A DNA stretch of 64,000 bases, from the NCBI RefSeq assembly GCF_056746865.1, contig NZ_CM163382.1, one strand, 5' to 3'. Position numbers and translations under genes: made by a program. Shown in pieces: positions 50,015 through 51,610 of the stretch. The notes under the pieces are model-generated. The model was not told the DNA's origin. It saw only the letters and a list, made by a program, of their open reading frames with translations, and made no database searches. Numbering within the stretch: the stretch's first letter is position 1; each line of letters starts with the position of its first letter.

Positions 50015-51558
50015 GCTGATGACTCCTGAAAGTTAATGACGTTTTAAGTGCTGTAAACGAATTAATGCTTTCGCTCATAATCAGATCTAAAACGGTAATA
50101 ACTTACAGACGGTATTTATCAGGCATGCTGTAACAGAATGGATACGTCGGTTATTAACGACACGTAGCGTTGTGCAGAAATAAATGGATTATCTGATGGT
50201 ATTAGCTAAAGAGATGAGATAAACGAGGAGTGAATAAAATACAGAATCAATAAACATCACGAAATACTGCAAAATATGCGATAAAAACCCACGATCAGAA
50301 GTTCAAGAAACATATTACGACTAATCACCATCATAAATTACAAACTTGCTCTCAATGGTTCTAAAAAACCGTGTACAAGGCCAACACGATACCTGTAACC
50401 CAATAAACTTACACGCACTCATTTTATCTGTTAAAAACAACTCATGTTCAAGATATGAACGTTAACGGGTACACGGTACCAGAATGAAACATACCATGGA
50501 TGGATAATTTTCATTTTATTTAAAATACAAGATAATCAGGAACGAACAAACACAATCAGAAATTCACTCTATTAATTCTGTTATTTACCCTGCTCGGCTA
50601 ATCGTTACAGAATAATGGATACCTTATTAAAGAGTAAGCATTCAGTTAATCAGTGATGACAGAAGTATTGATATTTACCAGAATGGTTAAAACATATCAG
50701 ATAAACAATCATTGTTAAGCAAATACAGCTCATGATGGATAAAATTAAAATAAATTATTATTTTACTGAAAACAGGAACAGATGGATATCAGCAATAGCG
50801 TAGTAGAGAATAACTTATCTGAGTATCATATGAGTTACAGTAGTTATGATTGAGGAATGGAGAAGGTGGATACCATGATAATGGTGACAATGAAGATTAG
50901 ACAAGGAAGGGAGTGAATATAACTGGATGAGAATAAGAGTAATGGAATGTGTAAAGACAGAGAGGGAAAATGAAGGGCAGAGATGGATGATAAATAAAGG
51001 GGTAGATACTAATTATAGTAATAAACCTAAATTAAAATTATCCATGTTTGATGAGTAAAAATAAGAAATCATCCGTTCTGAATACGAACATGACAAACCA
51101 TTATCTTACAGAAAAAATATCAAATCATTTTTCTTCACTCTCCTATTGAAATGCAAACTTGAACAGCATCTCTTTTCAGTAACAGTGATAACCATTCGTT
51201 ATTCAGGCAGAGACCGACATTATCATATACACCTACACTCATCACGACGAAAATCAAACGAAGTTATATATGAAAACTCACACAATATGGTTAATGATTA
51301 GCTTTAATCTATGTTAAAAATAATCTTTCGATTCACTTTCGATCAATAAAAAACGAAAGCCATGCTTCCACCAGTGCGCACACTCCTGTATTCAACCAGC
51401 TCTGACAGCAGGTCATTATGAAAACAAAATTAAATCACAGATGTGGTGCATGTGCTGCTACTGTTGCTACCGTAGCGGTTTTTTCAGAGAAATTCTCATT
51501 CCCCCCCCATAATTGGTGAACATTTGCATAGGTGCAGGATATGCAAAACGCCTTATCA

Positions 51559-51594
51559 CCAACCTCCGAATGAAGGTTGGTTGATTTTGTTTTA
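51559..51594 (+). terminator. candidate rho-independent terminator (CCAACCT-loop-AGGTTGG then TTGATTTTGTTTT), just past the DUF3987 gene end
   Basis: Read directly; may terminate plus-strand transcripts from the 50.0-51.5 kb non-coding region and possibly the convergent gene. Confidence 0.4.
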
Positions 51595-51610
51595 TCTGTG
51601 TAAGGTTATT

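Follow-up and report, generated by a model that had tools for sequence, protein, structure and literature searches.

Rho-dependent attenuation is known in long untranslated 5' leaders, for example those of rpoS, mgtA and corA. Rho loads on RNA that is rich in C, poor in G, unstructured and untranslated, and Rho and H-NS silence horizontally acquired DNA. In P4 immunity, premature termination in the PLE leader, with its CI RNA and seqA/seqC targets, controls the downstream replication genes. The intergenic region upstream of gene II in the Ff phages holds the origins and the packaging signal and is built of strong hairpins, and in contingency loci homopolymers phase-vary by slipped-strand mispairing. 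Here we analyze positions 50015-51610 of a 64,000-nucleotide window (contig NZ_CM163382.1 of RefSeq assembly GCF_056746865.1), which is Escherichia coli DNA from a CP4/P4-type genomic island. The stretch is bracketed by two minus-strand genes, a YagK/YfjJ-domain gene (49448-50014) and a YfjI/DUF3987 gene (51611-53497), and it consists of two units that differ in distribution. We consider the chance somewhat better than even that part A (50015 to about 51060) is the promoter and long untranslated leader of an operon encoding a Rep-like protein and an AlpA-type regulator; part B (51061-51610) most likely yields a small RNA. Long regulatory leaders in AT-rich DNA of horizontal origin are a known category, but this particular element appears to be undescribed, as do its conserved block and two-size architecture.

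The division into two units is seen in the distribution of the sequence. In a megablast search of 5426 complete E. coli genomes the stretch is matched in 1572, of which only 329 cover at least 80% of its length. The left ~1,045 bp (part A) are present in 1572 genomes (about 29%), always directly 5' of a minus-strand YagK/YfjJ-hypothetical-AlpA operon (with a further YagK-like gene), and the DNA on their right flank varies between islands. The right ~550 bp (part B) occur in 326 genomes, in every case adjoining the 3' end of a YfjI gene. None of the matching genome records has an annotated feature under the stretch. Neither part is present in K-12, and the K-12 equivalents that we considered (between yfjI and yfjJ, and upstream of yagK) are absent, with spacers of only 152 bp and 271 bp. 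Phage records hold no homolog, the window holds no paralogous copy (including upstream of its 243-aa Gp2-family gene), and the Rfam 15 covariance models give no match on either strand at E-values up to 1. Plasmid copies amount to one full module and remnants truncated by IS66, and are uninformative. All features listed in the original prediction were recovered at their positions; that they belong to two units had escaped it.

The stretch had been described as poor in open reading frames (ORFs) and rich in AT, and both descriptions hold. The longest ORF on either strand has 51 amino acids (aa; 51146-51301, plus strand), and the GC content is 0.34 overall, with 0.331 for 50015-51060 and 0.365 for 51061-51610, compared to 0.493 for the window. 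Variable alignment columns show no codon periodicity (counts by phase of 19/20/17, 31/23/32, 35/28/35 and 28/29/30, against 12/8/36 in the adjacent coding sequence), and the non-coding status is therefore not an artefact of AT-richness. Together with stops in all frames this rules out a pseudogene or hidden coding sequence. On the minus strand, along which part A is presumably transcribed (hereafter the sense strand), no ORF exceeds 39 aa and codon periodicity is likewise absent.

The reading of part A as promoter plus leader starts from a short block at its distal end (51010-51033). On the minus strand this block reads AATTTAGGTTTATTACTATAATTA and includes a putative -10 hexamer with the perfect sequence TATAAT at 51017->51012, from which transcription would start near 51005 and proceed leftward. 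TATAAT or TATTAT is found here in all homologs, those of the E. coli type as well as those of other genera. Of the non-coding DNA ahead of the orthologs in Citrobacter, Enterobacter, Salmonella diarizonae and Mixta, which share ~50% identity, nothing but the block (AATTTAGGTTAATTAATATAATTA) can be aligned; in these genera it lies about 145 nucleotides (nt) from the ATG. In Budvicia, with a protein that is 39% identical, a block-like sequence lies 1,029 nt upstream. An exact-pattern scan of metagenome contigs for the block gave 120 loci, 89 of them with sufficient downstream DNA. A YagK/YfjJ gene follows on the same strand in 84 of these 89 loci (that is, in all 84 genuine ones); the remaining five are chance matches in unrelated, extremely AT-rich DNA. 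Block and gene are 142-151 nt apart in 27 loci; in the other 57 the spacing is long, measuring 640-1054 nt where the full gene start was matched (910-1054 nt in most cases, 640-815 nt in a few). The two architectures, 145 nt or ~1 kb past one and the same block, amount to a natural experiment, and the block sequence can serve as a specific marker to locate the module in genomes and metagenomes.

At least nine unrelated contexts meet the module at differing points 4-35 nt upstream of the block, and only the block itself is retained. Such varied joins would be expected if a promoter core formed the upstream margin of a mobile gene module, but not of a fixed transposon end, a reading of the block that we dismissed because its boundary is not crisp. 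Several observations weigh against the promoter assignment. A -35 element resembling TTGACA is missing at 16-18 nt upstream, where the sequence is TAATTT and is variable or replaced elsewhere. The consensus promoter scan did not flag the block, and the region as a whole shows no excess of promoter-like sites (8 compared to 8.8 in shuffles). Also, -10-like hexamers abound in AT-rich DNA. On the minus strand, a separate promoter-like sequence (51068-51096; TTGTCA-17 nt-GATGAT, 9/12 matches) precedes the block by about 50 nt, in YfjI-linked context-specific sequence outside the conserved module.

Constraint along part A was mapped with the four-fold degenerate sites of the adjacent genes (mean pairwise identity 0.853) as a neutral yardstick. 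Both ends are constrained, with a mean pairwise identity of 0.935 for 50015-50350 and 0.925 for 51001-51055, which contains the block. The intervals 50351-50550 (0.82) and 50551-50850 (0.86) are about neutral, and 50851-51000 changes faster than neutral (0.75, with many indels). The near-invariant gene-proximal segment (50015-50160, minus strand) is a putative 5' untranslated region (UTR) or operator. In the ~150 nt beside the ATG the majority fraction reaches 0.98-0.99 among 46 unique leaders from genomes and metagenomes, and a 21-nt inverted repeat (50026-50046/50088-50108) borders on the YagK/YfjJ Shine-Dalgarno sequence (AGGAG, 50027->50023). The RNA of this segment folds as expected by chance on both strands (z ~0), and its substitutions are split between the strands, compatible with function at the DNA or the RNA level and on either strand. 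The AT-rich middle of the leader (50161-50819, minus strand) combines an identity of 0.82-0.86 with a lack of codon periodicity and of excess folding. Natural leader variants are missing 50145-50502, 50487-50692, 50783-50936 or 50917-50978, and the two best-resolved junctions (those of the first two deletions) sit in short direct repeats. Judged from the constraint map and these deletions of the middle, the functional core of part A is its two ends; the middle is usually retained and is not sequence-constrained.

It might be argued from the same data that function is confined to the block and the proximal ~150 nt, and that the intervening ~850 nt are drifting filler without a role for Rho or H-NS, dating from an old insertion or expansion that is slowly being deleted. 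The middle indeed diverges at the neutral rate (0.82-0.86 against 0.853) and is lost piecewise through deletions with repeat-mediated ends, the leader shows neither structure nor motif excess beyond composition, and the sister family manages with a spacing of 145 nt. The near-neutral, deletable character of these ~650-850 nt implies that length itself may be functionless, a point that counts against a functional long leader. Nonetheless, the long form is the rule in E. coli, where it occurs in ~29% of the genomes, and most of the 57 long-spacing loci fall at 910-1054 nt. Budvicia, at 39% protein identity, likewise has a spacing of ~1 kb, and bacterial genomes normally lose useless DNA. In addition, a C-rich and G-poor composition persists despite sequence turnover, a sign that it is under selection. 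We therefore regard filler as conceivable, though doubtful.

This composition characterizes the start of the putative leader RNA (50820-51009, minus strand), a candidate Rho-loading (rut) region. In the ~200 nt past the block the sense strand contains 24-28 C and 3-5 G per 80 nt (C/G ratio 5-8); on the plus strand 50850-51000 is 77% purine, in agreement with the purine-rich stretch noticed before. The bias is kept in all E. coli-type homologs despite the fact that sequence turnover is fastest here, and the short leaders of other genera are likewise C-rich. Sequence that is C-rich, G-poor and weakly structured over at least 80 nt, as expected of a rut site, extends here over ~200 nt. The first ~58 nt of the predicted RNA are unpaired in the minimum-energy fold, and its first ~130 nt contain no AUG with a ribosome-binding site. 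From a segment that is C-rich, G-poor, unpaired and untranslated we infer Rho-dependent premature termination in the leader, with lower confidence than we attach to the promoter-plus-leader reading. Three points weigh against it: the long upstream region of Budvicia is not C-rich, the scan of the minus strand within the leader found no intrinsic terminator, and Rho termination is not reliably predictable from sequence.

Compared to the established Rho-attenuated leaders, part A has the same layout of an untranslated stretch between a promoter-like element and the first gene, with a C-rich, G-poor, unstructured segment near the 5' end, and it too lies in AT-rich acquired DNA. It differs in its length of ~1 kb, which is longer than most (the sister family needing only its 145 nt), and in that both its start and its Rho dependence are deduced. 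Also unlike those leaders, part A has no identified relieving factor, be it a small RNA, an antiterminator or a leader peptide.

The original prediction had pointed to H-NS as the silencer of such AT-rich leaders. A GC content of 0.33-0.37 against 0.49 for the window fits the low GC of H-NS-silenced DNA, and H-NS-type motifs (tCGATAAATT-like) reach a density of 3.76/kb compared to 0.84/kb in the window, a difference of ~4.5-fold. Composition can account for these motifs (4 against 2.5 expected, a number reached in 42 of 200 shuffles), a point against the silencing model, and three of the four best matches are ATGGAT words. What stands of the suggestion is the likeness to a long AT-rich regulatory leader of island genes, for which H-NS binding is plausible by composition; no excess of motifs over composition is seen.

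On our preferred reading the leader would probably be silenced by Rho and H-NS, and the following course of events may be envisaged. Transcription would begin at the -10-bearing block, near 51005, and run leftward. RNA polymerase would then cross an untranslated leader of ~1 kb, of which the first ~200 nt are expected to load Rho and which is AT-rich enough over its entire length for H-NS to bind. Because of this Rho loading and H-NS binding most transcripts would end short of the genes, and the Rep-like/AlpA operon, with its excision-regulator-type product, would stay silent until termination or silencing is relieved. The near-invariant ~150 nt at the start codon, with the inverted repeat at the ribosome-binding site, could form a second control point (5' UTR or operator). 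The explanation as a whole, part A as a regulatory leader and part B as a separate unit of the small-RNA type, we hold to be about evenly balanced between right and wrong.

Published work lists the genes concerned as uncharacterised 'core' island genes and gives the role of the Rep-like HUH protein as unknown; among the characterised genes of the SRL island the literature names rox. Relatives of the AlpA/Vis/Rox-type regulator, such as the product of rox, drive island excision. An element that sits upstream of the operon for such a regulator in ~29% of complete E. coli genomes is annotated in none of them. If the leader gates the operon via Rho and H-NS, it would provide a testable handle on the quiescence of pathogenicity and resistance islands, and on the timing of their mobilisation.

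The P4 immunity leader is, together with the Rho-attenuated leaders, what we see as the nearest mechanistic analogy to part A. The element in the window is itself of the P4/CP4 type, with an AlpA/Vis-type regulator and a DUF3987 gene; it has a long untranslated leader before replication-type genes, and premature termination is the suggested control. Unlike P4, part A shows no sequence similarity to phages and no evident CI-like stable hairpin RNA. Conserved complementarity of the P4 type (seqA/seqB/seqC) was not found either: repeats in the window, such as 50500-50516 with 51029-51045, lie in variable or deletable parts.

Antitermination offers a further comparison. The AlpA protein of Pseudomonas aeruginosa and the lambdoid Q proteins act by promoter-embedded antitermination, and this AlpA contacts DNA with residues 128-142 and places an N-terminal ring in the RNA exit channel (PMC9371919, PMC7969949). 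The operon studied here likewise includes a gene of the alpA name, and a conserved element in or upstream of the -10 is likewise followed by what would be a termination-prone leader. The protein here, however, is only 78 aa long and of the Vis/Rox helix-turn-helix (HTH) type, and the ABE sequence GGGACG is absent. We rejected a transfer of the P. aeruginosa mechanism, as that protein is far larger and of different architecture.

Part A also contains a repeated word, ATGGAT(A) on the plus strand (ATCCAT in the sense RNA), at 50138, 50184, 50496, 50500, 50615, 50735, 50782 and 50983. These 8 copies compare to 0.7-0.9 expected (reached in 0/2000 and 0/500 simulations), and the word is enriched on the same strand in 7/7 homologs (3-6 copies against ~0.5 expected). 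Only three of the sites are invariant among homologs. An inverted copy beside the block (51040-51045) is dispensable in other contexts, most short leaders have one ATCCAT ~30 nt past the -10, and natural leader deletions have ends in ATGGAT words. Candidate ligands of the word are H-NS, the AlpA-type HTH protein and the HUH protein.

The last of these candidates leads to a different view of the conserved sequences. The 188-aa product of the YagK/YfjJ gene matches the Pfam families YagK_YfjJ_C and REP_ORF2-G2P. Seven of seven members of the family have an HxH motif followed by hydrophobic residues (HAHAVFW, HYHVILLL; with HAH, HYH or HFH as the core) and a Y-x-x-K motif (YLAK, YLVK); they include the window genes 49448-50014 and 54400-55131 as well as those at L009 7548-8174 and L027 6323-6949 in other loci. 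This pattern resembles that of HUH rolling-circle nucleases; solved structures give no sequence match for the 188-aa protein. With an HUH-type protein encoded next to them, the two constrained ends may serve as DNA targets for it, either in place of transcription signals or in addition to them, a possibility that weighs against a purely transcriptional account. The block would then be an origin or nick site and the ATGGAT/ATCCAT words iteron-like, for use in rolling-circle replication or mobilisation of the excised island, and these sites might share sequence with the promoter of the gene itself, as they do in many Rep systems. Block and gene stay closely linked from genus to genus, the block is AT-rich and, in the short-leader genera, flanked by a 7-bp inverted repeat (GGGAGTG...CACTCCC), and the strand-biased word recurs in all homologs. 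Filamentous phages moreover have their long non-coding origin region directly upstream of gene II.

This Ff region resembles part A in being long, non-coding and directly upstream of a G2P-related gene, and part A too has an AT-rich conserved core by the Rep-like gene. The resemblance ends at structure and at the host element, which here is an integrated island: single-stranded DNA of part A folds no better than shuffled sequence (z of -0.9 and -0.5), and a hairpin-rich origin was dismissed for this lack of excess folding. Furthermore, the long-leader form of E. coli misses the flanking inverted repeat and its block is not in a stem, the words are irregularly spaced over 850 bp with 3/9 invariant and a dispensable copy upstream of the block, the outer edge of the module is not crisp, and no nuclease activity is known for the YagK/YfjJ family. 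Overall, we consider it unlikely that the ends are targets of the HUH protein. We rate slightly lower still the specific proposal that block and ATCCAT words form the cis-acting origin/nick site of YagK/YfjJ HUH nucleases in CP4/P4-type enterobacterial islands. If this proposal were true, the islands, usually taken for passive 'cryptic prophages', would hold a module for rolling-circle replication or mobilisation that a 1-kb Rho/H-NS-sensitive leader keeps silent and that fires after AlpA-driven excision.

The words and the purine-rich plus strand also allow part A to be read in the opposite direction, as a long non-coding RNA whose transcription leads away from the YagK/YfjJ gene and which might, for instance, be a CsrB-like sponge with many GGA and AUGGAU motifs. 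The plus strand does carry 10 GGAU and 8 AUGGAU motifs. However, GGA is not enriched over dinucleotide expectation (19 against 17.7), for which reason the CsrA-sponge idea was dropped, and neither excess folding of the plus strand nor an Rfam match for part A is seen. In most islands there is no terminator or homology past the block on this strand, and the linkage and orientation of block and gene favour the opposite one. A plus-strand RNA is thus highly improbable, and promoter plus leader on the minus strand remains our preferred reading of part A.

Part B would be a separate, YfjI-linked unit, in which a conserved element of ~160 nt is transcribed rightward and ended by a terminator. We gathered 27 copies of it, representing 10 alleles at the C tract and 11 intact sequences of the 33-codon ORF that the original prediction had singled out (51418-51519, plus strand; product MKTKLNHRCGACAATVATVAVFSEKFSFPPHNW). 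The conserved core (51358-51519, plus strand) includes this ORF, and an invariant 33-nt stretch, CAGCTCTGACAGCAGGTCATTATGAAAACAAAA, spans its start codon. In the ORF and the 60 nt upstream of it the variable fraction is 0.18-0.25, compared to 0.59-0.78 in the flanks. The hairpin and T-run reported earlier are present as well: an 8-pair stem at 51558-51581 on the plus strand, with an 8-nt loop, is followed by TGATTTTGTTTT. This intrinsic terminator (51558-51594) converges on the YfjI stop at 51611. Its stem and T-run are kept on the plus strand in every allele class, while the stem sequence changes; terminator-like sites number 3 in the region against 0.8 expected from shuffles. No shuffle out of 200 matches the fold of 51385-51600 (z -2.8), in which the 3' tail pairs with the start region. 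This fold makes use of a complementarity of 13 nt (92%) between 51421-51433 (the first ORF codons) and 51581-51593 (the U-tail of the terminator), which diverged alleles retain only approximately.

These observations suggest that part B most likely gives rise to a small RNA that is convergent on yfjI, and less likely to a small protein. Two results weigh against an RNA: the alignment has a covariation term of +0.03 and a single compensatory pair, with too little diversity for more, and no promoter was identified in part B. Of the small RNA ending at the hairpin that had been suggested, the terminator and the fold make the general idea plausible, and covariation in the alignment does not back it.

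The alternative is a membrane-type protein of 33 aa. It might be a type I toxin, with 5'-3' pairing to lock its mRNA, and slippage at the run of eight C inside the ORF (C8) would switch its synthesis on and off. Eleven distinct alleles preserve the frame with its start and stop, the peptide has a basic N terminus followed by a hydrophobic core, the invariant region crosses the start codon, and the terminator tail complements the start region. Three slippage variants interrupt the 33-codon frame, which the other copies all keep open: C8 to C7 in MRY15-131, the same change in 23CRST051, and T6 to T5 in GPEC1035. The substitutions tell otherwise. Variable sites are distributed as 10/7/8 over the codon positions, changes in the ORF are synonymous in 9 and non-synonymous in 18 cases (23% synonymous being expected at random), and a frame left unbroken by them has a chance probability of ~0.24. 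With no codon-position bias, mostly non-synonymous changes and a frame compatible with chance, protein coding of the ORF is not supported, and the purifying selection expected on the small hydrophobic ORF of a type I toxin was not found. In addition, the hydrophobic stretch has only ~14 residues, Pfam has no match for the product, the fold lacks covariation and no antisense promoter was found. With C8 limited to one allele besides, we take such a toxin to be very unlikely.

The tract itself, placed at 51501-51508 (plus strand), is found in the window's allele only. Nine other tract alleles read ACCCCCC, CACACCCA, CACCCCCA, CATGCCCC, CACGCCCC or CACTCCCC, with ACA, ACC, ATG, ACG or ACT as the codon at the tract, and it follows from these interrupted tracts that C8 arose via one A-to-C change. 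The frame-shifting C7 occurs in 2 of ~31 sampled near-identical genomes; it is rare and indistinguishable from a homopolymer assembly error. Like contingency loci, part B thus has a homopolymer in an ORF and frame-shifting variants of it; unlike them, its tract is absent from 9/10 alleles, its ORF lacks a coding signature and its variation is rare and maybe an assembly error. C8 is an incidental, allele-specific feature and not a conserved switch, and the slipped-strand switch that had been proposed is not supported. An invariant tract in all homologs, named beforehand as grounds for discarding the proposal, is strictly speaking not what is seen; more telling is that most homologs lack any tract. 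For the slipped-strand idea the value of the analysis is therefore negative. A C tract of another kind, distinct from the homopolymer at 51501-51508, occurs in other genera: their short leaders (L016 ~3440-3450; also L011, L013 and L015) have it ~45 nt past the block, at variable length, with C8 in Enterobacter wuhouensis and C6 or C3 elsewhere.

The operon that part A would serve occupies 47473-50014 on the minus strand, as delimited by Pfam matches and by a gene order common to all homologous loci. The YagK/YfjJ gene comes first and is followed by a hypothetical gene of 201 aa (48592-49197; ~190-200 aa in the homologous gene sets), the 78-aa AlpA/Vis-type HTH gene (48287-48523; Pfam Phage_AlpA) and a degenerate YagK-like gene of 182 aa (47473-48021) that has lost the HxH and YxxK motifs. 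At the right boundary of the region, the YfjI-family gene on the minus strand matches Pfam DUF3987 with an E-value of 2.4e-73; RefSeq calls it at 51611-53215, an annotation taken from the identical locus L001. In two homologous loci (L002 2431-2998 and L003 2433-2998) the YagK/YfjJ gene is annotated as frameshifted behind a well-conserved leader. The leader may thus outlive an intact first gene, or the frameshift calls may be assembly errors. Two other loci have a gene or gene fragment of the H-NS family within 0.5-1.5 kb of the block (L004 4487-4585 and L006 5210-5650), and part A abuts different DNA there.

Locus L001 (strain H9Ecoli) contains an identical copy of the region in flanking DNA that is not identical to that of the window. 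The resistance genes aph(6)-Id, aph(3'')-Ib and sul2 lie with IS remnants ~6-9 kb to the left of the region (L001 50-2565), and a ProQ/FinO-family pseudogene adjoins the module. The window itself holds a second AT-rich, ORF-poor stretch of ~1 kb (55132-56100, GC 0.34-0.39). It lies upstream of the other Gp2-family gene (54400-55131, minus strand), shares no homology with part A, and has a G/U-rich sense strand with repeated words of the GATGATT(T)TG type. Long ORF-free upstream regions may be a recurrent trait of these genes.

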